From Alphaproteobacteria bacterium (GTDB lineage Bacteria > Pseudomonadota > Alphaproteobacteria > MPNO01 > UBA2964): a stretch of DNA of 64,000 nt. The notes under the pieces are model-generated. The model was not told where the DNA came from, did not search any database, and worked only from the letters and a program-made list of their open reading frames with translations. Position numbers and translations under genes: made by a program. The stretch covers positions 28,959-92,958 of the forward strand of contig WLWZ01000014.1 of NCBI GenBank assembly GCA_012103315.1, in the 5' to 3' direction. Below are positions 1 to 42,345 of the stretch, piece by piece (position 1 is the first letter of the stretch; every line of letters begins with the position of its first letter).

Positions 1-333
1 TTTTCGCGAGATATTCCGACTCTTACCCGCACCGAATTTCGCGATGTTATGATGGTATTTTTAAAGAAGCACGACATGTCACTCGATGACATTGATGAAT
101 TCATTTGCCATCCGGGAGGTGCAAAAGTGCTGGACGCATTGGAAGACGCCTTCAATCTTCCGTCAGGTGGTCTCGACACTTCGCGCGAGATTTTGAAAAA
201 CTACGGTAATATGTCTGCCGTGACCGTTCTTTTTGTTTTGGAAAAAGTTCTACAAGAACGAAAACAAGGACGACTTCTATTAACGTCTCTGGGTCCTGGG
301 TTCACGGCAGCCTTCATGACGATGACCGCATGA
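1..333 (+). CDS. Type III polyketide synthase (chalcone/stilbene synthase family), C-terminal fragment; 5' end lies outside the window
   Basis: Frame 1 is open from nt 1. The motif ICHPGGAKVLDALEDAFNLPSGGLDTSREILKNYGNMSAVTVLFVLEK is typical of the C-terminus of bacterial type III PKS. Confidence 0.75.
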   Translation, partial: FSRDIPTLTRTEFRDVMMVFLKKHDMSLDDIDEFICHPGGAKVLDALEDAFNLPSGGLDTSREILKNYGNMSAVTVLFVLEKVLQERKQGRLLLTSLGPGFTAAFMTMTA

Positions 334-839
334 GCATTCTCTATGCCGTTTTGCTATTTGTTGTTGCTCAACGCCTGGTGGAGCTCGTTATCGCGAAACG
401 GAATACCGCGGCGTTGATCGCTGATGGTGGCATCGAACATGGCGCCGCTCATTACCCTCTCATTGTGTTGTTACATTTATGCTGGATTGCGTCGCTCGCC
501 TATTTTATTCCGGCGGACCAGCCCGCGGTTTGGTCCCTACTCGGTGTTTTCGCGGTTTTACAAGGACTTAGGGTCTGGGTGCTTGTGACGTTGGGGCGGC
601 GTTGGACCACGCGTGTTATCGAGATTCCCGGAGAACCGCCTGTTGCCACGGGTCTCTATCGCTGGGTTCGTCACCCTAACTATCTGATTGTCGCGGGCGA
701 AATCCTCATGCTGCCATTGGCATTCGGCGCCTGGGAAATCGCGGTGATATTCTCTGTGCTCAATGGCATGGTTCTTTGGCATAGAATTCGTGTTGAGAAT
801 GTTGCCCTCGATAATATGGCCGGGACGATAAATGAATAA
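330..839 (+). CDS. Isoprenylcysteine carboxyl methyltransferase (ICMT)-family membrane methyltransferase
   Basis: Multi-TM protein with the RWVRHPNYL motif of the ICMT/phospholipid methyltransferase family. ATGA start/stop overlap with the upstream PKS suggests translational coupling. Confidence 0.7.
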   Translation: MSILYAVLLFVVAQRLVELVIAKRNTAALIADGGIEHGAAHYPLIVLLHLCWIASLAYFIPADQPAVWSLLGVFAVLQGLRVWVLVTLGRRWTTRVIEIPGEPPVATGLYRWVRHPNYLIVAGEILMLPLAFGAWEIAVIFSVLNGMVLWHRIRVENVALDNMAGTINE

Positions 840-922
840 ACAGCGATGCCGCGTGTTGTTATGATATGCGGGCCTATAATTACCGCTAGAATGCGTGAAC
901 TAAAAAACTTGGGGGAAACTGG

Positions 923-3135: not shown

Positions 3136-4848
3136 ATGCCGCAAAAGACAATTACAGACGGTACCGTTTCTGACGCCTATTTGGCGCTCTTGGCGGATAG
3201 AGGCATCGACTATTTTTTTGGTAATGCGGGAACAGATTTCGCTCCGATTATTGAGTCCTTTGCCAAGGCGCAGGCACTGGGTACACCGGCACCAAAAGCT
3301 ATGCTCGTGCCGCACGAAAATCTCGCGATCCATATGGCGCTTGGTTATTACGCGGTAACGGGGAAGCCGCAAGTGGTTATGGTGCATGTCAATGTCGGTA
3401 CGGCAAATGCGCTCAACGGCATTATCAACGCTAGCCGTGGCAATATTCCGGTCCTCTTTAGTTCCGGTCGTACGCCCTATTCAGAAACCGGTGACCGGGA
3501 AGGAAAACGTACCCGTGAAGTGCATTGGCCGCAGGAAATGTTTGATCAAGGTGCACTGGCTCGTGAGATGGTCAAATGGGATTACGAGCTAAAGGACAAG
3601 GCGGTTCTAGAGACCGTTGTCGACCGGGCTATCAATGTCGCCATGACGGAACCCAGAGGCCCAATCTATCTCACTCTCCCCCGTGAACCTCTGGCTGAGA
3701 AGTTCGATAGCTTTGATTTCACGTCTCCATCCCGTCATGCGACCCCGACGGTTGCGTGGCCTGATCCTAATGCGATTGACCAGTTGGCATCGCGTATTGC
3801 GAATGCTGAAAATCCTCTGATAATTACTCAGGACTCAGGCGCGGATGTGAATGCTGTGGCGCCGCTTGCGGCTCTGTCGGATCGTTTTGCCATTCCGGTC
3901 ATCCAACGAAAGCCACGCTATCTCTGTCTGCCAACAGATCATCCGATGCATCTTGGATATGACTCTGACCCCTATCTCGACTTCGCAGATTTAATCATTG
4001 TCGCGCAATGTGATGTCCCGTGGATACCAAGTGTGAAATCACCAGGTCCAGGCTGTACCGTGGTTCATATGGGACCGGACCCCATCTATAGCGATTACCC
4101 CATCCGGGGGTATGAGGCGGACATGGCGATTACGGGCTCCATGGCACCGTCGTTCCGAATGTTGGATGATGCTCTTGCCGGACTCGAAACGAGCGCCAAA
4201 CCGTCAATTGATACGCGGCGTAAACGGGTCGCTGGTTTGCGCGACATGATGCATGAGAATTGGGCGGCTGGACTAGAGAAATCAAAAAGCGCTTCGCCGA
4301 TGAGCCAGGCTTGGATCAGCCATTGCATTAGCGAAGTCAAAGATGATGACACCATCCTGATTACGGAATCTGCATTTGCTATGGCTCAGATGGAACTGAC
4401 AAGGCCTGGCAGCTTTATCTCCGGCGGGGCCGGTGGTGGAATCGGCTATGGATTGGGCATGTCCCTTGGTGCCAAATTGGCCGCGAAGGATCGTATGGTG
4501 ATCTGCACACAGGGTGATGGCGCCTACATGTACGGCAATCCGGTCCCCGCTCACTATGTTGGTCAGGCCGAAGGTTTACCGACCCTCACCGTCATCATGA
4601 ATAACGAGCAGTGGGGTGCAGTGAAACGCAACACCCGCGCGATGTATCCTGATGGCTACGCTGTCAAAAGCAATCGCGAAGACCTGACCTTTTTCGAAGG
4701 CGGCATGGCGTTTGAAAAAACGATGGATATTGCTGGTGGTTATGGCGAACGTGTCGAAGATCCTGCTGAGCTTCCGAAAGCCCTTGAACGGGGAGCAAAA
4801 GCCGTTAGTGACGGGCAACCGGCAGTGTTGAATTTACAGACGGTGTGA
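3136..4848 (+). CDS. Thiamine-pyrophosphate-dependent enzyme (acetolactate synthase/benzoylformate decarboxylase family)
   Basis: 570 aa with the three-domain TPP enzyme layout. It has the N-terminal pyrimidine-binding region (FGNAGTDFAPII) and a C-terminal TPP-binding GDGAYMYG ... NNEQWG motif. Confidence 0.7.
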   Translation: MPQKTITDGTVSDAYLALLADRGIDYFFGNAGTDFAPIIESFAKAQALGTPAPKAMLVPHENLAIHMALGYYAVTGKPQVVMVHVNVGTANALNGIINASRGNIPVLFSSGRTPYSETGDREGKRTREVHWPQEMFDQGALAREMVKWDYELKDKAVLETVVDRAINVAMTEPRGPIYLTLPREPLAEKFDSFDFTSPSRHATPTVAWPDPNAIDQLASRIANAENPLIITQDSGADVNAVAPLAALSDRFAIPVIQRKPRYLCLPTDHPMHLGYDSDPYLDFADLIIVAQCDVPWIPSVKSPGPGCTVVHMGPDPIYSDYPIRGYEADMAITGSMAPSFRMLDDALAGLETSAKPSIDTRRKRVAGLRDMMHENWAAGLEKSKSASPMSQAWISHCISEVKDDDTILITESAFAMAQMELTRPGSFISGGAGGGIGYGLGMSLGAKLAAKDRMVICTQGDGAYMYGNPVPAHYVGQAEGLPTLTVIMNNEQWGAVKRNTRAMYPDGYAVKSNREDLTFFEGGMAFEKTMDIAGGYGERVEDPAELPKALERGAKAVSDGQPAVLNLQTV

Positions 4849-15571: not shown

Positions 15572-16375
15572 ATGGTGATCGGCAAAACTCTACGCAAATA
15601 CGTTGCTCTGATAGGTGCGTTGACACTTTCGGGATTAGTTTCTGCGCATGCCGGAACACGAACTTATGACATCAACATGTTGCTTGATCAGCCGCATCCC
15701 TTTGCTAGCCAACCCAGCGACCCCTATTTTTCGTCGACATCATCCGTTGCGGTTCCAGTAAGAAATATTAGGGCCCCTGCCCGCATCCCCGGTTTTACCA
15801 CGCCGTCCCGGGCGATACCTCGGTCGGCCGTCCAAAAAACTGCATCTGACAGAATGCGCGGTGCGGCTGTACCCAATAGGGCAATTGCAGCGCTTCCCCA
15901 AAAAAACAAAGGCCTCATTTCTGAAATCAGGGTGGGTTTCCTCGTTCACGATCAAGGTCCCTTTTCTCGTAACGAAGAGGATGGCTTCGATGGAAATTTC
16001 GAGATTCTTTTTAGGTCACCGTCCTGGTTGCAGAAAATTTGGTCGCCGCGTCCTCATATCGGTCTTTCTGTAAACTCTTCGGGCGACACCAGTCAGGCAT
16101 ATGCGGGTTTGACTTGGGAATGGCGATTTTGGAAAAATTGGTTCATAGACTTTAGTCTCGGGGGATCGGTTCATGACGGTAAAAAAACGACGACACGCAT
16201 AGACCGCAAAGAACTTGGTTGCCGACTTCTCTTTAGAGAATCCTTTGAATTAGGATACATATTCAAGGAACGGCACAGCATAACCGGGTTCTTGGACCAC
16301 ATTTCAAATGCGAATATTTGTGATGCGAATGAAGGTCTGGAAAACTTTGGGATTCGCTACGGCTATCGTTTTTGA
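15572..16375 (+). CDS. Outer-membrane acyloxyacyl hydrolase (PagL-like lipid A deacylase) family protein
   Basis: Signal peptide, an HISNA (H-x-S-N) catalytic-type motif near the C-terminus, and a terminal aromatic YRF beta-barrel signature. Confidence 0.5.
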   Translation: MVIGKTLRKYVALIGALTLSGLVSAHAGTRTYDINMLLDQPHPFASQPSDPYFSSTSSVAVPVRNIRAPARIPGFTTPSRAIPRSAVQKTASDRMRGAAVPNRAIAALPQKNKGLISEIRVGFLVHDQGPFSRNEEDGFDGNFEILFRSPSWLQKIWSPRPHIGLSVNSSGDTSQAYAGLTWEWRFWKNWFIDFSLGGSVHDGKKTTTRIDRKELGCRLLFRESFELGYIFKERHSITGFLDHISNANICDANEGLENFGIRYGYRF

Positions 16376-19967: not shown

Positions 19968-21482
19968 ATGGCTAACAGGAACCAACCGATCCAGGATCTC
20001 CGCGAGTGGATAGATGACGTTGATGAACTTGGTGAACTGGTACGAGTGACAAAACCGGTGGATCGCGATGAAGAGATGGGCGCGATTGCTTATCTGCTTG
20101 GTAAACAAAACCCTTCGCCCACGGTTTTGTTCGAAAGCCCAAACGGGTTTGACGACAATAACCCGATTGGCGCCCGGCTGCTGTGGAACCTGGTTGGCCC
20201 GAGCATCAAGCGTATTGCGATAACGCTCGAAGAACCTGCTGATACACCCACTATTGAATTGATTACGCGCGTCAAAGGCAAAATGGCCAATAAAATTCCG
20301 CCGGTGGAAGTGCCTGCGGATGAGGCGCCGATCTTTACCAATACCTTAACCGGGGACGATGTTGATCTCGATCTGTTGCCGATCCCAACCCATTGGCCGC
20401 TAGATGGTGGACGCTACGGCGGTACCGGCGATTGTGTCATTACGCGAGACCCTGACAACGGGTACCTCAATGTTGGTACCTACCGGATGATGCAACATAG
20501 TAAGAACGAAGTTGGATTGCATCTTTCTCCCGGTAAGGACGCGCGACTACATATCGAACGCGCGTGGGAGCGAGGCGAATCTGTTCCGGTTGCAGCTTGT
20601 TGGGGTGTTGACCCTTTGTTTATGCTGGTTGGTTCTCAGGGCTTCCCAAAGAATATTTCGGAATATGAGTATATCGGTGGGCTTAAAGGCCAGGCTGTCC
20701 CGGTGCTGAAGGCCAAGAACAGTGATTTGTTGATCCCGGCCAATGCTGATTTGATGATTGAAGGGGTAATCGAACCGCAGGCTGTTCGCGCGGAAGGCCC
20801 GTTCGGTGAATTTACTGGCTATTATGGTTCACCTGTCGGACAAGCGCCGCTGGTTAAGGTTACGGCCATTCATTATCGGGATAACCCGATCTTGACCAAT
20901 GCTTTGATGGCAGATTACCCGTCCTGCGAACAAAGTGGGTTCTTCGCGATTATTCGGTCTGCGAAGATTTGGGATGACTTGGATAAGCTCGGCGTGCCTG
21001 GGATTGCGGGAGTTTATGCCCATCCCGCCTCTGCCGGTGGTTATGGGCTGACCGTGGTTAGTCTTGAGCAACGATATGCTGGTCATGCAGCGCAGGCGCT
21101 TTCGTTAGCGGCTCAGGTTCCCGGCGGTGCATTCTTTACCAAGTGGATTGTCGCTGTGGACGAAGACGTCGATCCCTCCAATATGGATGAAGTCCTCTGG
21201 GCTTTGGGCAGTCGCAGCAATCCAATCGATGATATCGATATCCTGCGCAATACCTGGAGTACACCTCTTGATCCTAGCCAGGGCGACCCTGCGTTACGGC
21301 CATACGGATCAAAGGCGCTCATCAATGCCTGTAAGAACCACAAACATCGCGACAAATTCCCCAAGCGCACGGTGTTGCGAAAATCTGTTTATGACAAGGT
21401 TACAGCGAACTGGAAGGAGCTAGACCTTCCAGGCGAGGCACCTGGGGTCATTGTCTTTGAAAAAGAAGACAAAGCTGAATAG
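19968..21482 (+). CDS. UbiD-family (prenylated-FMN-dependent) decarboxylase
   Basis: The N-terminus (IQDLREWIDDVDELGELVRV) and overall layout match the UbiD / non-oxidative aromatic acid decarboxylase family. Confidence 0.8.
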   Translation: MANRNQPIQDLREWIDDVDELGELVRVTKPVDRDEEMGAIAYLLGKQNPSPTVLFESPNGFDDNNPIGARLLWNLVGPSIKRIAITLEEPADTPTIELITRVKGKMANKIPPVEVPADEAPIFTNTLTGDDVDLDLLPIPTHWPLDGGRYGGTGDCVITRDPDNGYLNVGTYRMMQHSKNEVGLHLSPGKDARLHIERAWERGESVPVAACWGVDPLFMLVGSQGFPKNISEYEYIGGLKGQAVPVLKAKNSDLLIPANADLMIEGVIEPQAVRAEGPFGEFTGYYGSPVGQAPLVKVTAIHYRDNPILTNALMADYPSCEQSGFFAIIRSAKIWDDLDKLGVPGIAGVYAHPASAGGYGLTVVSLEQRYAGHAAQALSLAAQVPGGAFFTKWIVAVDEDVDPSNMDEVLWALGSRSNPIDDIDILRNTWSTPLDPSQGDPALRPYGSKALINACKNHKHRDKFPKRTVLRKSVYDKVTANWKELDLPGEAPGVIVFEKEDKAE

Positions 21483-27912: not shown

Positions 27913-29010
27913 ATGAGTAAAGTCGGTGTCATCGGGGGTGTTTGCACGACGCATGCTCCCCAACTTTGGACTCTCCCCGAATCGGAAGACCCCAATGTGG
28001 TCAACCGGGTGAAAGATCTCCTTACCGGCGTTGGTGACAAACTCAAGGCTATGAAGCCCGATATTTGCATTGTCATCGCCAATGATCATGCGCATCAGTT
28101 TCTACTGCACTGCACAGCCAGCTTCACGATGCATATTGGCGGTGTAGCGGAAGGGAGTTTTGCCGGCCGTGATTATGAATATCCAGTCGCCAGTCAGGCA
28201 TCCCTGGACCTCCTCCGCTATGCCCAACGTAATAACGTTGATCCCGCGTTCACCAGTAACGCCAAGATCGATTATGCCTTTGGCATTCCGCTGGATTTCA
28301 CCGGCATAGATAACATCCCGATCCTACCAATTTTCGTGAATGCCTACGTCCCACCACAGCCTTCTATAGAAAGATGTTTTGCTTTTGGTCGTATCCTTGG
28401 AGACGGGATTAAGGCCTTGGGCCTACGCGCCGTCGTCGTCTGTAGTGGTGGTCTTTCACATTACCCTGGCACCGAACGCTATATGGACCCGGGCCCTGAC
28501 GAAGAATTTGATCGTCATTTCATGGGCATGATGGAACGAGGTGAGCTCCGCTACTTACTGGCCCTCGATGAAAAGAAACTCGATGAAACAGGTAATATTG
28601 AGCTGCGCTGCTGGGGTGTTGCGGCGGGTATGATTGGAGAACGCCCGCCTGACGTCACTAATTTTGAACCAACCTGGCATCATAATTACGGAACCGTGGC
28701 CTGGACAAACGAGCCTGAAGAAGAAACTTTCGAGCCGCATTACCCCCACATTCATCCGGAGCGAGTGGTATTGTCGGAGACGCTGCATAATCTTGCCGGA
28801 GATCGAAATGAACGGGAAAGATACTTGGCCGACCCAACAGCCTACGCAGCAGCAATTGAAGGCCTCAGCGAAGAAGAACGCAAAGCGCTCGTTGCGTTGG
28901 ATCAGTCTGAAATGATTGCGATGGGCATGCACCCGTTCGTACCACACAGCTTTAGACGGGTTCTGGAGCGCGCGGGTATCCTCGAGGCTGCAGCACCACC
29001 CAAGAAATAA
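27913..29010 (+). CDS. Class III extradiol ring-cleavage dioxygenase (LigB family) with a fused LigA-like C-terminal domain
   Basis: LigB-type N-terminal domain (VIANDHAH, His ligands). The C-terminal region (GLSEEERKALVALD) resembles the LigA/GalA C-terminal domain. Confidence 0.65.
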   Translation: MSKVGVIGGVCTTHAPQLWTLPESEDPNVVNRVKDLLTGVGDKLKAMKPDICIVIANDHAHQFLLHCTASFTMHIGGVAEGSFAGRDYEYPVASQASLDLLRYAQRNNVDPAFTSNAKIDYAFGIPLDFTGIDNIPILPIFVNAYVPPQPSIERCFAFGRILGDGIKALGLRAVVVCSGGLSHYPGTERYMDPGPDEEFDRHFMGMMERGELRYLLALDEKKLDETGNIELRCWGVAAGMIGERPPDVTNFEPTWHHNYGTVAWTNEPEEETFEPHYPHIHPERVVLSETLHNLAGDRNERERYLADPTAYAAAIEGLSEEERKALVALDQSEMIAMGMHPFVPHSFRRVLERAGILEAAAPPKK

Positions 29011-31782: not shown

Positions 31783-32709
31783 ATGATTATCGATACGCAT
31801 ATTCACGTTTGGAGCTACCCTGCCCTCGCTGATGCACGAGACCATATAAAATCAACCAAAGATCTGGTGAGTTTTCGTAGCCGCTGCCCGGACCTTTATG
31901 ATCGGACGTTAACGGAAGATCCGATTGATAATTCGGATCAGTTGATCGCCGACATGGATGAGTTTGGGATTGACCGGGCTTTCGTACAGGCACGCCCCGG
32001 ATCGGTCACCAACGATCAGGTCGCATTGTCTGTTGAACGACACCCTGACCGCCTCTATGGCCTGATGCGAATTGGTCACGATCAGGAAGCCGCGTATGAA
32101 TATTTGGAAGACCCGGCTCCCGTCCGTGACGGCGCGGCGGATGAGGTCGCCCATTGTATCGAAGATTTGGGTATGATCGGTCTTGGTGAAATTTTTATCC
32201 GTGCGATGACGGCGGAGGTCGATCCCGAAAAAATCGCCAAAGACCTCGTCCCAATGATGGATGCCGTCAATCACTATAAGGTACCGGTGCAGTTTCCAAC
32301 GGCATGGTCACAGTTTCCCGGCGGATTGTTTTATGGTCATCCGGTATGGGCTGATGAGGTCGCCGCTCGTTATCCGGATGTTCCGATCATCCTTACCAAG
32401 ATGGGACGAAGCCTGATTACTTATTTTGAGCCCTGTATGGCCGTGGGAATGCGCAACGAGAATGTTTATTTCGATGTGGTTGGAACGAATGCTGATCATT
32501 TAAGACAAGCACTCGATCTATTGGGGTCTGAGCGGATTATGTTTGGCTCGGATTGGTCTGCGACCTGGAGCTGTGTTCGCGAACCCGCCCCGCTCTACAC
32601 CATGCGGCTTAAAGTCCTGGAAGATGCAGGGTGTACGGAGGAAGAACGCGAGAACATTCTGTGGCGTAACGCGGCGCGGTTGTTCAAGCTAAACGATATT
32701 GCGAATTAG
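31783..32709 (+). CDS. Amidohydrolase-2 family metal-dependent hydrolase (LigI/LigJ/ACMSD-like TIM barrel)
   Basis: MIIDTHIHVW N-terminal HxH metal motif and conserved downstream His/Asp. 308 aa. Confidence 0.7.
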   Translation: MIIDTHIHVWSYPALADARDHIKSTKDLVSFRSRCPDLYDRTLTEDPIDNSDQLIADMDEFGIDRAFVQARPGSVTNDQVALSVERHPDRLYGLMRIGHDQEAAYEYLEDPAPVRDGAADEVAHCIEDLGMIGLGEIFIRAMTAEVDPEKIAKDLVPMMDAVNHYKVPVQFPTAWSQFPGGLFYGHPVWADEVAARYPDVPIILTKMGRSLITYFEPCMAVGMRNENVYFDVVGTNADHLRQALDLLGSERIMFGSDWSATWSCVREPAPLYTMRLKVLEDAGCTEEERENILWRNAARLFKLNDIAN

Positions 32710-39324: not shown

Positions 39325-40137
39325 TCAGGATTTGAGCAAACTCGCTATTATGATCCGGCAACGACGCCAGGCGGCATTTGTCGGGTGCCCAGTAAATGGC
39401 GATGCTTTGATTCTGGTGAGACGTTTCAAATCGTACCGGGCGATCCACTGATAAAGTGCTAGATCGTTACTTGAAGTCTGCAAGTTTGGATCTAAATGCT
39501 CTGATGCGAGGTTAAGGACTTCACCGAATGCCCGAAGAGCCCTGTCAGTCCCTATTTGTGTCACCGCTATACCCGGTAAATAACAGCGCTGTTGTGCTCG
39601 ATAAAACTCAATTGACTTCAATAACCCGATGAGGGCCCATGCCGTCCCTATTCTGTTCGCAGTCTCTTCATCCGATCCTGTTATTTCGGTCACAAGCTGA
39701 AGCAGGCTTCCCGATGTCGATTGGGCATAAGATAACAATTCAGCGATGTCTTTAGGTTCGCGGTCTTCGAGATCAAATTCCCGTCCGTTGATCATGTCGT
39801 CGAAATGCGGACGGCTTAATGAATATTCTTTGACGATAAAGGACAGAGCCAAAACTACTTCATGATTTCTGGGCGTTCCCTGATAAATGCCGTCAAGCGC
39901 TTCACGCCACCACTGAAGCCTTATACGGCCCAACATTGGCTCTGAAACGGTTTCCCGTGTTTTGGAAATTTCGAGATTAAAGGCATACAGAACCAGGAGC
40001 GGCGCCCGAAACTTCTTTGGCGCGGCAATCGCTGTAAGGTAGCGATCAGGATCGAAGGTTCTTACCTGTAAAGCACAATACTCCATCGTGCCATCTAGGG
40101 AGGATCTATCTTGAGGGGCTGCGAACGACTCGTCCAA
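39325..40137 (-). CDS. Squalene/phytoene synthase-family protein lacking the first Asp-rich motif (NDUFAF6-like)
   Basis: Isoprenoid synthase class 1 fold pattern (LLVLYAFNLEISK ... RLQWWREAL), but no DDxxD at the expected position. Confidence 0.55.
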   Translation of the reverse strand: MDESFAAPQDRSSLDGTMEYCALQVRTFDPDRYLTAIAAPKKFRAPLLVLYAFNLEISKTRETVSEPMLGRIRLQWWREALDGIYQGTPRNHEVVLALSFIVKEYSLSRPHFDDMINGREFDLEDREPKDIAELLSYAQSTSGSLLQLVTEITGSDEETANRIGTAWALIGLLKSIEFYRAQQRCYLPGIAVTQIGTDRALRAFGEVLNLASEHLDPNLQTSSNDLALYQWIARYDLKRLTRIKASPFTGHPTNAAWRRCRIIIASLLKS

Positions 40138-40219
40138 GGGGCTACTGTCTCGTTTTTGACGCTATAATAGACATGTTCTTTTAACCCAATTTCGGAATGT
40201 CCCGAACGGAAGTTTTTCT

Positions 40220-41068
40220 TTGACCGCGAATACATCATTGGAAACGCCTACCAAGACCAGCAATGACGAGAACTTTCCCGTTGCTAGTTGGCTAATTCCT
40301 GCCGAGTTGCGGGAGCATGTGCATATTTTTTATCTTTGCGTTCGTGCCGGAGATGATGTGGCTGATTCCCCTGATCTAGAGCCAGAAGAGAAATCAGCTC
40401 TCCTAAAACGGATGGATGATGCCCTTCAAGGCAATGGCACAGTCGACGAGGTTACCCAAAATGCCTCCAATCACGCACTTAGCGCGGCTGAAACCGACGT
40501 AACAACTCAACATGCCCGTCATTTGCTGCAGGCCTTTACCATGGATGTGACCAAGAAGCGTTATCGCAACTGGTCCGAGCTGGTAAATTATTGCCTGTAT
40601 TCTGCAGCCCCTGTCGGACGATACCTGGTTGATCTACATGGCTGTGATGACCGCCCCAAGAAGGCAACGGATGCCCTTTGTATCGCCTTACAAATTCTCA
40701 ATCATTTACAGGATTGTAAGGATGATTATTTAGAAATTGATCGTGTTTATATCCCGGAGGATATGCTGAGAGCTCAAAAGATTGATGTGACGGCCTTAAA
40801 GGCGGATTGTGCGAGTGCCGAGCTTCGCGCTGTGCTAGATGCTGTTCTCGACCGGACAGATGAACTTTTGCAACACGCCCGCACCGGACCAAAGCAGATA
40901 TCACACCGTGGGCTACGACTGGAGACAGCGGTTATCGTCGCAATTGCCGAGAAGTTATCAAAGAAACTAAGACGGAATGATCCCATCGCTGGTCGTGTCG
41001 AACTGACGAAAATACAAAAGGCGTCGTGTGCCTTAAAAGGACTTTGGCGAGGAATGGTGACAGCGTAA
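40220..41068 (+). CDS. Squalene synthase-like enzyme HpnC/HpnD family (hopanoid-associated)
   Basis: Phytoene/squalene synthase family with intact Asp-rich motifs (YLCVRAGDDVADS, LQDCKDD). It lies directly upstream of an HpnE-like oxidase. Confidence 0.65.
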   Translation: MTANTSLETPTKTSNDENFPVASWLIPAELREHVHIFYLCVRAGDDVADSPDLEPEEKSALLKRMDDALQGNGTVDEVTQNASNHALSAAETDVTTQHARHLLQAFTMDVTKKRYRNWSELVNYCLYSAAPVGRYLVDLHGCDDRPKKATDALCIALQILNHLQDCKDDYLEIDRVYIPEDMLRAQKIDVTALKADCASAELRAVLDAVLDRTDELLQHARTGPKQISHRGLRLETAVIVAIAEKLSKKLRRNDPIAGRVELTKIQKASCALKGLWRGMVTA

Positions 41069-42345
41069 TGGGAACAGTACATGTCATTGGGGCTGGCATG
41101 GCTGGCCTATCCTGCGCTGTGCAGTGCGCTAAAGCTGGGCATTCTGTTGCAATCTATGAAGCCTCGCCACAAGCAGGCGGTAGATGCCGGTCATTTCAAG
41201 ATGAAGGGTTAGGTTGTCTCATAGATAATGGCAGCCATATGCTGATTGGCGCCAATGAAGCCACCAAAAACTATTTGGATGATATTGGATCTCGGGATTT
41301 GGTCTCCGAGATTGTGCCGGCAACATTCCCGTTCTTTCAGCCGGACACCGGTCAGCAATGGCAAATTAAACCGGGTTCACCCTATTTTCCCATGTGGCTC
41401 TTAGCACCTGGGCGTCGAGTCCCGGGAACTAATCCGATCGATTATGCGAAAGCGCTCAGACTCTCGCGGGCAAAAAAAGAGGACACGGTTCGTCAGATTA
41501 TCGGCGGCGATGATCCACTTTACGATAGACTTTGGCAGCCAATCTGCCGGGCAGTTTTAAATACAGATGCTGATGACGCTTCTGCCCAACTGCTCTGGAA
41601 AGTTCTCAAGCTGAGTTTTCTTAAAGGAGAGTCCGCTTGCCGACCGATGATCTTTGAAAAAGGTCTTTCGGCGGCTCTCGTCAATCCTGCACTCGCGTTT
41701 TTGGAAAACAGCGAAGCCAATATCAGATATCAAGCAAGGTTGCGGGGAATTCGTTGGGAAAACGACGTTGTTCTCGCGATGCGCTTTCCAGAAGGGCTCT
41801 TACGGGTAGAGAACGAAGATACAGTTGTCTTAGCCGTACCACCTGATATTTCTGCTGAACTATGGCCCGATACTAACCCTCCGCAGGAAACACTCCCTAT
41901 CGTCAATGTGCATTTTCGCGTTCGGGAACCTGTTGAGCTTCCCGGTGGACTCCCGTTCCTGGGGCTTATCGGAACTGATTCACAGTGGATTTTTTCAAGA
42001 GATAACGTGCTATCGATCACGATTAGCGCCGCTTCTGCCCATGTCGATATGCCTAATTGGGAAATCGCCAATCAATTATGGTCAGAAGTTACCGCAATTC
42101 TTGGACGAAATATGGGACGCCTTCCACCATGGCGCGTTATCAAAGAACGTCGTGCAACGATTGCTCAAACACCAACGGTTTTGGCAAGTCGTCCTGGCGC
42201 AAAGACCGCTCTCAATAATTTATTCATTGCTGGTGATTGGACCAATACTGGCCTCCCCGCAACGATCGAAGGCGCAATTCAGTCAGGGCGCCGTGCTGCC
42301 AGGCTGGCGATCAGACGAATGACAAAAGTTCCTGAAGATAATTAA
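41068..42345 (+). CDS. hpnE: Hydroxysqualene dehydroxylase-like FAD-dependent amine oxidase
   Basis: VHVIGAGMAGLSCAVQCAKAGHSVAIYEA FAD dinucleotide fold, about 425 aa. TAATG overlap with the upstream gene. Confidence 0.65.
   Translation: MGTVHVIGAGMAGLSCAVQCAKAGHSVAIYEASPQAGGRCRSFQDEGLGCLIDNGSHMLIGANEATKNYLDDIGSRDLVSEIVPATFPFFQPDTGQQWQIKPGSPYFPMWLLAPGRRVPGTNPIDYAKALRLSRAKKEDTVRQIIGGDDPLYDRLWQPICRAVLNTDADDASAQLLWKVLKLSFLKGESACRPMIFEKGLSAALVNPALAFLENSEANIRYQARLRGIRWENDVVLAMRFPEGLLRVENEDTVVLAVPPDISAELWPDTNPPQETLPIVNVHFRVREPVELPGGLPFLGLIGTDSQWIFSRDNVLSITISAASAHVDMPNWEIANQLWSEVTAILGRNMGRLPPWRVIKERRATIAQTPTVLASRPGAKTALNNLFIAGDWTNTGLPATIEGAIQSGRRAARLAIRRMTKVPEDN

Follow-up and report, generated by a model that had tools for sequence, protein, structure and literature searches.

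The window analysed here, a stretch of 64,000 nucleotides from an alphaproteobacterial assembly (GCA_012103315.1; contig WLWZ01000014.1, positions 28,959 to 92,958), opens with the end of one gene overlapping the start of another. The question is whether the two form an operon that makes and methylates a phenolic lipid and, if so, whether that operon works in this organism. An earlier note had read them as a type III polyketide synthase (PKS) translationally coupled to an ICMT-family methyltransferase, in an operon of the Srs/Ars type. Here we report the completion of the PKS gene from identical metagenome contigs, the assignment of both gene products, the distribution of the pair among other genomes and a stop codon within the PKS. 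We give a probability of roughly three in four to the reading that the locus is a chromosomal, vertically inherited cassette of two genes, of the BpsA/BpsB (SrsA/SrsB-like) type, whose PKS has recently become a nonsense pseudogene in this organism, leaving the pathway off. The features concerned are listed below; coordinates refer to the window unless stated otherwise.

1..333, forward strand: 3' part of the type III PKS gene (codons 243-352 of 352, plus TGA; translation, Pfam, reconstruction)
L001 2377-3102, upstream of the window: remainder of the type III PKS gene (from contigs identical to the window)
109..111, forward strand: codon of the putative catalytic His279 of the PKS, motif FICHPGGAKV (alignment, match to Pks11)
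208..210, forward strand: codon of the putative catalytic Asn312 of the PKS, motif NYGNMSAVT (alignment, match to Pks11)
330..333, forward strand: ATGA stop/start overlap of 4 nt, the methyltransferase ATG lying over the PKS TGA (sequence; relatives)
330..839, forward strand: ICMT-family integral membrane methyltransferase of 169 aa, putative BpsB/SrsB-type partner (Pfam, profile, AF2 model)
669..683, forward strand: RHPNY motif, residues 114-118, the ICMT cofactor-binding signature, followed by a conserved Glu124 (18 homologs, Ma-ICMT)

Identity of the two genes

Frame 1 of the window is open from the first base and encodes 110 residues up to the TGA at 331-333. The fragment matched the Pfam model Chal_sti_synt_C with 58.1 bits (cut-off 27) and ACP_syn_III_C with 42.5 bits; together with the His and Asn motifs, this agrees with the earlier description of the first gene as the C-terminal fragment of a type III PKS. 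The upstream part was recovered by an exact look-up of the methyltransferase, which led to the metagenome contigs L001 and L002. Both are 100% identical to positions 1-2473 of the window and reach about 3.1 kb further upstream, an extension that covers the PKS, a divergent DUF502 gene and recG. The PKS frame of L001 opens with an ATG at 2377 and closes with a TGA at 3433-3435, which corresponds to 352 codons; the length is the same as in its relatives, and the product aligns gap-free with relatives of 352 aa. Obtaining the upstream sequence, as the earlier note had proposed, completed the gene in this way but also brought to light a TAA at codon 129, which was read as Gln in the full-length reconstruction.

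The reconstructed protein matched Chal_sti_synt_N with 77.5 bits and Chal_sti_synt_C with 64.6 bits, and the NCBIfam model DpgA with 144 bits, whereas the FabH models scored 27-75 bits against cut-offs of 249-437 (best score 74.5 bits, cut-off 249). When a profile of the PKS family was searched against the PDB, the leading matches were Pks11 (238 bits), THNS of S. coelicolor (182 bits) and the alkylresorcinol synthase CylI (173 bits). All 30 PDB matches of the PKS at E <= 1e-25 were type III PKSs. The triad Cys147-His279-Asn312, sought in the contexts GCxGG, HPGG and GNxS and with Cys147 upstream of the window, is invariant in the alignment of 16 PKS homologs and aligned with that of Pks11. 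The residues H279-P280-G281 and N312-M313-S314 are likewise invariant, HPGG aligning with HPGG of Pks11 and GNMS with GNLS. The corresponding motifs are HPGG and GNMS in type III PKSs and HQAN and GNTS in FabH. Homologs of the PKS with 58-73% identity are named 'alkylresorcinol/alkylpyrone synthase' by JGI and those of the methyltransferase 'methyltransferase', strings that we take to be the KEGG names for bpsA/srsA and bpsB/srsB. Judged from its sequence, the first gene of the window is assigned to the type III PKSs of the alkylpyrone/alkylresorcinol type.

The product of the second gene scored 92.8 bits with the Pfam model ICMT (PF04140; E 1.9e-26, cut-off 24) versus 25.6 bits with PEMT (PF04191; cut-off 25), and its residues H115, P116, N117, Y118 and E124 are invariant among 18 homologs. 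Searched as a single sequence against the PDB with phmmer, it gave no match; a profile of its family reached Ma-ICMT (4a2n) at E 1.4e-3, with RHPNY aligned with RHPMY. The AF2 model (pLDDT 87.5) is nearly all helical, with five long helices. The top three PDB entries in a Foldseek search with this model were 5v7p, 4a2n and 5vg9, with weak E-values (about 0.08), and the comparison with 4a2n gave a TMq of 0.63 and a probability of 0.99. The equivalog model for protein-S-isoprenylcysteine O-methyltransferase (NF040696) yielded 16.5 bits against a cut-off of 160. On these grounds the protein is predicted to be an enzyme with an ICMT fold that does not belong to the prenylcysteine methyltransferases proper, and its earlier description as an ICMT-family membrane methyltransferase with an RHPNY motif holds. 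In the NCBI record, the methyltransferase is named 'hypothetical protein' and the PKS appears as two products.

The same scores bear on the reading that the earlier note had set against its own, in which the first gene encodes a FabH-type KAS III and the second a phospholipid N-methyltransferase, as a pair of primary lipid metabolism. The ACP_syn_III_C match of the fragment and a PEMT score barely at the Pfam cut-off would fit such a pair, but both are outscored, by the chalcone-synthase domains and by ICMT, respectively. The FabH scores far below their cut-offs, the PDB matches of the PKS, its HPGG and GNMS motifs and the ICMT structures among the fold matches of the methyltransferase also stand against it. 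These results refute this reading, which we regard as extremely improbable.

Pairing of the genes and their chromosomal position

In a scan in which each species was represented by a single genome, relatives of the PKS turned up in at least 545 genomes, and the best 80 loci were examined. In 78 of these best 80 of at least 545, an ICMT-type gene lies directly downstream of the PKS gene on the same strand. The junctions between the two genes in the best 80 of at least 545 were distributed as follows.

4-nt NTGA overlap: 50 loci
1-nt overlap: 4 loci
8-nt overlap: 1 locus
gap of 0-30 nt: 19 loci

The 4-nt and 1-nt overlaps together place an overlapping PKS stop and methyltransferase start in 54 of the 80 loci. 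The ATGA that the earlier note had pointed out was found at 330-333 of the window, and the notion of a conserved, overlapping pair is well borne out by the relatives. The best 80 of at least 545 genomes are mostly Alphaproteobacteria (Stellaceae, Rhodospirillales, Caulobacteraceae, Rhizomicrobium and the marine Nisaea), the other labels being Eremiobacteraeota/Vulcanimicrobiota, Bryobacterales, Candidatus Acidoferrum/Acidiferrales, Candidatus Udaeobacter and Betaproteobacteria. When the open reading frames of these 80 loci were clustered, only the PKS and the methyltransferase were conserved throughout, and the unit is therefore taken to be a two-gene operon with a conserved stop/start overlap. 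DUF502 and recG recur in about 20 of the 80 loci, and no recurrent monooxygenase was found in the clusters. The pairing of the PKS with the methyltransferase is not due to chance. A larger cluster that would include the acyl-CoA ligase, MaoC and enoyl-CoA hydratase genes downstream was considered and rejected; these genes are syntenic in close relatives only and not in the best 80 of at least 545 loci.

Such a distribution makes it very unlikely that the methyltransferase is independent of the PKS, acting on prenylated or other membrane lipid or protein carboxylates, simply adjoining the PKS gene and remaining useful after its loss. The intact reading frame of the methyltransferase next to a broken PKS would be in line with independence, as would a family named for prenylcysteine methylation and the RefSeq GO term 'C-terminal protein methylation' on homologs. 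Against these points stand the same-strand adjacency across several phyla, mostly with overlapping codons, the low score with NF040696 and the methylation of PKS products by BpsB given in a passage of PMC9827899 that cites Nakano 2009; moreover, the stop in the PKS appears to be recent, so that an intact methyltransferase says little.

A tblastn search of the methyltransferase against PLSDB returned 26 records. Among them, Sulfitobacter indolifex from North Sea seawater carries a gene annotated as 'type III polyketide synthase' that overlaps by 1 nt with one annotated as 'isoprenylcysteine carboxylmethyltransferase family protein', and Marinovum algicola and Alloyangia pacifica were also matched. 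Nisaea, Sulfitobacter, Marinovum and Alloyangia are marine genera with the pair, and Pelagibius has the methyltransferase on its own. Among Alphaproteobacteria, marine ones included, the cassette cannot be called rare; the earlier statement that type III PKS genes are uncommon in marine members of the class is not supported in view of these genera and the at least 545 genomes with relatives.

The window is ordinary core chromosome, with gyrA, uvrA, a trmFO/gidA-like gene, squalene-synthase-like genes and aromatic-catabolism genes. Its G + C content is flat (about 0.51), and a recent horizontal acquisition of the cassette was rejected on a composition profile without an island signal. The order recG, DUF502 (reverse strand), PKS, methyltransferase, Fer2-adenylate cyclase, MaoC, TPP enzyme and AMP-ligase (reverse strand) is the same in six contigs from other samples, and identical in L084 and L089-L094; mfd and sdh5 lie further upstream in most of the six contigs, in a region beyond the reach of L001. 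A Rhodospirillaceae MAG (a 'tara' source is also recorded for the cluster) shows the same order without the TPP enzyme and with an additional TPR gene. Because gene order is shared and the G + C content flat, the cassette is considered to be vertically inherited at a fixed position in a marine Rhodospirillales-like lineage and not an acquired island.

Scanned for promoters, the region of L001 before the PKS showed no sigma-70-like site; the sole such site lies at 837-865 of the window, after the methyltransferase stop. No convincing terminator was found after the methyltransferase, and the Rfam search yielded one tRNA in the whole window and nothing near the PKS-methyltransferase locus. The 15 nt that precede the ATG of the methyltransferase contain no Shine-Dalgarno-like sequence, and initiation probably relies on ribosomes that terminate at the overlapping TGA, such that the 4-nt ATGA overlap would couple translation of the methyltransferase to that of the PKS.

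By analogy with characterised relatives, the PKS of intact copies would load a long-chain fatty acyl starter with its Cys147-His279-Asn312 triad and condense it with two or three malonyl units, and the product would be cyclised to an alkylpyrone and/or alkylresorcinol. The ICMT-fold methyltransferase would then O-methylate a ring hydroxyl, which would give a methyl ether of a membrane phenolic or pyrone lipid.

The stop codon within the polyketide synthase gene

The TAA at codon 129 is in frame (L001 2761-2763; context TPSLDAHLL*RLDFRPDCERLPIFGLGCAGG, the asterisk marking the stop) and lies about 340 nt upstream of the window start and 18 codons before the codon of the putative catalytic Cys147. 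An uninterrupted PKS frame of about 350 codons was sought in the assemblies of the source sample and not found, the TAA being present in four of them (the NCBI MAG, ENA S001, ENA S002 and the Logan assembly of SRR10090292). Gene callers divide the PKS into products of 128, 140 or 163 aa and 213 or 199 aa, depending on the assembly; the 97-kb contig of the NCBI MAG (locus-tag prefix GKS01) carries it as products of 128 aa and 213 aa. All TAA-bearing assemblies derive from BioSample SAMN12718690, a Mycale hentscheli sponge, with different pipelines and read subsets, and trace to one DNA extraction from one sponge specimen (PMC7157528).

In the alignment of 16 homologs, codon 129 is matched by Gln in the nearest relative and by Glu in all 15 others. 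At the DNA level, it is CAA or GAA in the seven closest loci (L083 and L089-L094, from at least five samples), whose PKS genes align ungapped with L001, contain no internal stops and have kept the ATGA junction in all seven cases. None of more than 87 homologs has a stop at this codon, and the PKS is intact in all of the best 80 genome relatives of at least 545. An intact copy from the organism of the window was sought in the protein database without success, the best match being 81% identical, and an exact pattern around the stop, with the first codon base left free, had no match among the JGI metagenome contigs. Compared with its nearest relative L083, the interrupted gene differs by 174 synonymous and 66 non-synonymous codons and shows no other lesion, and every family-invariant residue is retained.

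As the differences to L083 are mostly synonymous and no other lesion is present, the nonsense change is probably recent, and because the TAA precedes the codon of Cys147, the PKS has presumably lost its function. Recoding of TAA is unlikely, since TAA serves as an ordinary stop in the genome of the window; the methyltransferase itself ends in TAA (837-839). Judged from these comparisons, the PKS, under purifying selection until recently, has most likely become a nonsense pseudogene in recent times, and the operon proposed in the earlier note is probably not functional here. Since every assembly with the TAA comes from the same DNA, an intact allele, be it in the minority or the majority, may conceivably coexist in the population. 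Apart from the TAA, the PKS and its partner are undamaged, an appearance that would be expected of a functional gene as well.

The last two points lead to the reading that the cassette is functional in this organism, with the TAA being a variant of part of the population, an error common to assemblies of the same reads, or a stop that is overcome, either through read-through or through reinitiation at a TTG ten codons downstream. A rest of the PKS that is conserved, free of frameshifts and biased towards synonymous differences to its nearest relative, with the invariant residues kept, fits this reading, as do an intact methyltransferase and the origin of all assemblies from one DNA extraction. 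It has to be weighed against the recovery of the TAA in four assemblies with different pipelines and read subsets, the use of TAA as an ordinary stop (837-839, for example), its absence from codon 129 of the homologs and the failure to find an intact copy from the organism in the protein database; in addition, a product that began with this TTG would be without about 140 residues at the N-terminal end of the thiolase fold. A functional cassette is, in our estimate, unlikely.

The preferred reading is that of a pathway that has been switched off in the Mycale hentscheli associate, where a single-base change would have turned codon 129 from CAA or GAA into TAA. With no Shine-Dalgarno-like sequence and a start that would depend on the overlap, synthesis of the methyltransferase would be reduced by the PKS stop as well; its expression is probably lowered by polarity and the pathway probably off. 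It is doubtful, though conceivable, that the product of the pair is an envelope lipid that serves in housekeeping or under stress, as opposed to an accessory secondary metabolite, and that the nonsense mutation marks early host-associated gene loss. This suggestion rests on the fixed core position (mfd, sdh5, recG, DUF502, PKS, methyltransferase, Fer2-cyclase), and less likely still is expression of the interrupted PKS by read-through or as two pieces.

The significance of the locus extends little beyond the correct annotation of two genes. The evidence supports renaming them as a putative BpsB/SrsB-type polyketide O-methyltransferase and an interrupted type III PKS of the alkylpyrone/alkylresorcinol type. 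When the genomes of the Mycale hentscheli microbiome are mined, the reads should be checked before this type III PKS cluster is listed among the productive pathways. For expression, an intact relative from the widespread alphaproteobacterial clade, such as L083 or L089-L094, would be more suitable.

Comparison with known systems

As far as can be told from gene content and order, the locus has the two-gene layout of the Bps type, an already described and widespread kind of cassette. BpsA/BpsB of Bacillus subtilis and DquA/DquB of Sporomusaceae are two-gene operons in which an ICMT-like membrane methyltransferase of about 170 aa comes directly after a type III PKS of about 350 aa (PMC9827899, PMC5686519). 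According to a passage of PMC9827899 that cites Nakano 2009, BpsA forms alkylpyrones and some alkylresorcinols, both of which are O-methylated by BpsB; DquB gave no methylation in E. coli, where its expression was not visible (PMC9827899). The likeness of the window lies in the succession of a type III PKS and an ICMT-like methyltransferase without a third conserved gene, and it is the absence of an SrsC-type gene that assigns the locus to the Bps two-gene type. The differences are that Bps and Dqu belong to Firmicutes and the present pair to Alphaproteobacteria, with only 36-37% identity to the Bacillus genes, and that the genes in the window overlap by 4 nt and the PKS carries a premature stop.

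In place of the characterised BpsA/B and SrsA/B sequences, the comparators were Bacillus and Streptomyces orthologs from plasmid-labelled records, chosen for their annotation and synteny. Identity to the window was 48% for the methyltransferase (E 1e-42) and 38% for the PKS in Streptomyces sp. NBC_00184, and 48% and 44%, respectively, in Sulfitobacter indolifex, in each case over the full or near-full length; in Bacillus velezensis, the values were 37% (E 1e-40, 92% of the length) and 36%. The ICMT-family gene of Bacillus velezensis adjoins fbpC and a dynamin gene, a neighbourhood that we take to be the bpsB (ypbQ) position of the B. subtilis map. The cluster of Streptomyces sp. NBC_00184 comprises UbiA, the PKS, the ICMT-family methyltransferase and a FAD monooxygenase, which is the srs/agq-type layout.

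The SrsA/SrsB/SrsC system of Streptomyces griseus, which produces alkylresorcinol and alkylquinone phenolic lipids, likewise has an ICMT-family methyltransferase after a type III PKS, and methylation of the product has been demonstrated for SrsB. It differs in that neither the window nor its relatives have an SrsC-type FAD monooxygenase or a prenyltransferase next to the pair; the gene downstream of the methyltransferase encodes the Fer2-adenylate cyclase and not a monooxygenase. In the ars operon, the PKSs are paired with the type I FAS-like ArsA and ArsD, and no methyltransferase is known from it; the determinant of resorcinol versus pyrone formation is Trp281 in ArsB and Gly284 in ArsC. FAS-like genes were not found near the pair in the window, its neighbours being recG, DUF502, the cyclase, MaoC, the TPP enzyme and the acyl-CoA ligase. 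The ArsB/ArsC system of Azotobacter vinelandii cysts shares the PKS superfamily and the class of long-chain phenolic lipid products, and both ArsB and ArsC are PKSs (PMC6274091). The Srs-like pairing of the earlier note is thus retained, without an SrsC-type gene, and the Ars comparison is dropped; taken as a whole, its interpretation is partly supported.

Alphaproteobacterial type III PKSs are about 29% identical to ArsC (PMC8776678), and the ArsC structures 3VS8 and 3VS9, named in PMC6274091, were absent among the PDB matches listed for the PKS of the window. Acetobacteraceae have clusters in which a type III PKS is accompanied by a methyltransferase and a FAD monooxygenase, with an unknown product, and the metabolite of the Rhodospirillales clusters is likewise given as unknown (PMC8776678). 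The closest solved relative of the PKS is Pks11 of M. tuberculosis (PDB 4JAO), which forms a long-chain alkylpyrone; in a comparison of sequences only, the alignment spans both proteins from end to end (194 bits when the single sequence is used) and the Cys-His-Asn context is kept. The methyltransferase shares its Pfam family, the RHPxY motif and a helical membrane fold with Ma-ICMT (4A2N) and eukaryotic ICMT (5V7P), but is only 14-20% identical to them, and its substrate is likely to be a polyketide lipid, not a prenylated protein.

Methyltransferase pairing and the adjoining cyclase gene

The pairing of the type III PKS with an ICMT-family methyltransferase is near-universal in the 80 related loci, the best 80 of at least 545 species-level genomes with PKS relatives. 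The pattern is broken at two of the 80 (L044 and L048, one Eremiobacterota MAG and one Caulobacteraceae MAG), where the PKS is present and no ICMT-type gene was found within 4 kb downstream of it. Two further genes near the pair were compared (window coordinates):

923-2578, + strand: cyclase gene, 551-aa product with PF00111 and PF00211 domains
3136-4848, + strand: TPP-dependent enzyme gene, between MaoC and AMP-ligase

The cyclase gene lies directly 3' of the methyltransferase gene in all close relatives, which comprise a syntenic Rhodospirillaceae MAG locus (L084) and six contigs from other samples (L089-L094); its position next to the PKS is not conserved across the wider set of 80 loci (best 80 of at least 545). 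In the product, a hydrophobic N-terminal stretch of approximately 220 aa precedes a ferredoxin domain of the 2Fe-2S type (PF00111), and the class III adenylate/guanylate cyclase domain (PF00211) follows. The protein appears to be a cyclase, possibly redox-sensing, whose combination of domains is uncommon. The TPP-dependent enzyme gene is shared by the window and the six contigs and is missing from L084, where the methyltransferase and cyclase genes are instead separated by a small TPR gene.

No sigma-70-like promoter match was obtained in the intergenic region between the divergent DUF502 (- strand) and PKS genes, which lies upstream of the window (2225-2376 of L001, a metagenome contig overlapping the window start). 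The sole match (L001 3939-3967; window 837-865) is located past the methyltransferase stop codon and ahead of the cyclase gene.

Other metabolic genes in the window

The window also encodes the following:

15572-16375, + strand: 267-aa ORF, PagL lipid A 3-O-deacylase domain at the C-terminus (74.6 bits)
19968-21482: UbiD-family decarboxylase
27913-29010: fused LigB-LigA type extradiol ring-cleavage dioxygenase
31783-32709: amidohydrolase_2
39325-40137, - strand: squalene/phytoene-synthase family gene 1
40220-41068, + strand: squalene/phytoene-synthase family gene 2
41026-42345: flavin amine-oxidase family gene, after both synthase genes

The decarboxylase, dioxygenase and amidohydrolase_2 genes suggest aromatic-acid catabolism in the sponge-associated bacterium. 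The trio at 39325-42345 resembles the three-enzyme squalene route HpnC/HpnD/HpnE, a second membrane-lipid pathway within the same window as the PKS-methyltransferase pair.

Comparison with Bacillus and Streptomyces loci

In Bacillus velezensis AP3 (L086 2016-3486; 'plasmid unnamed1', NZ_CP094295.1), a bpsA-like PKS without an entry in the PLSDB gene table lies upstream of an ICMT gene. Its reading frame is open over the last 316 codons only, and the PKS is possibly frameshifted or truncated. The ORF ahead of it, in a different frame, appears FMN-dependent azoreductase-like by eye only. The record is labelled a plasmid, yet contains chromosomal-looking genes (gerPC, fbpC, dynamin). On the linear plasmid of Streptomyces sp. 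NBC_00184 (L087 1930-7111; NZ_CP108138.1), the type III PKS gene carries no annotation beyond 'KAS III C-terminal domain protein' and stands between the genes for a UbiA prenyltransferase (- strand) and an ICMT-family methyltransferase. A FAD monooxygenase gene comes next, then a pair of genes for class I SAM methyltransferases. The cluster is of the srs/agq type and prenylated methoxy-hydroquinone-like.
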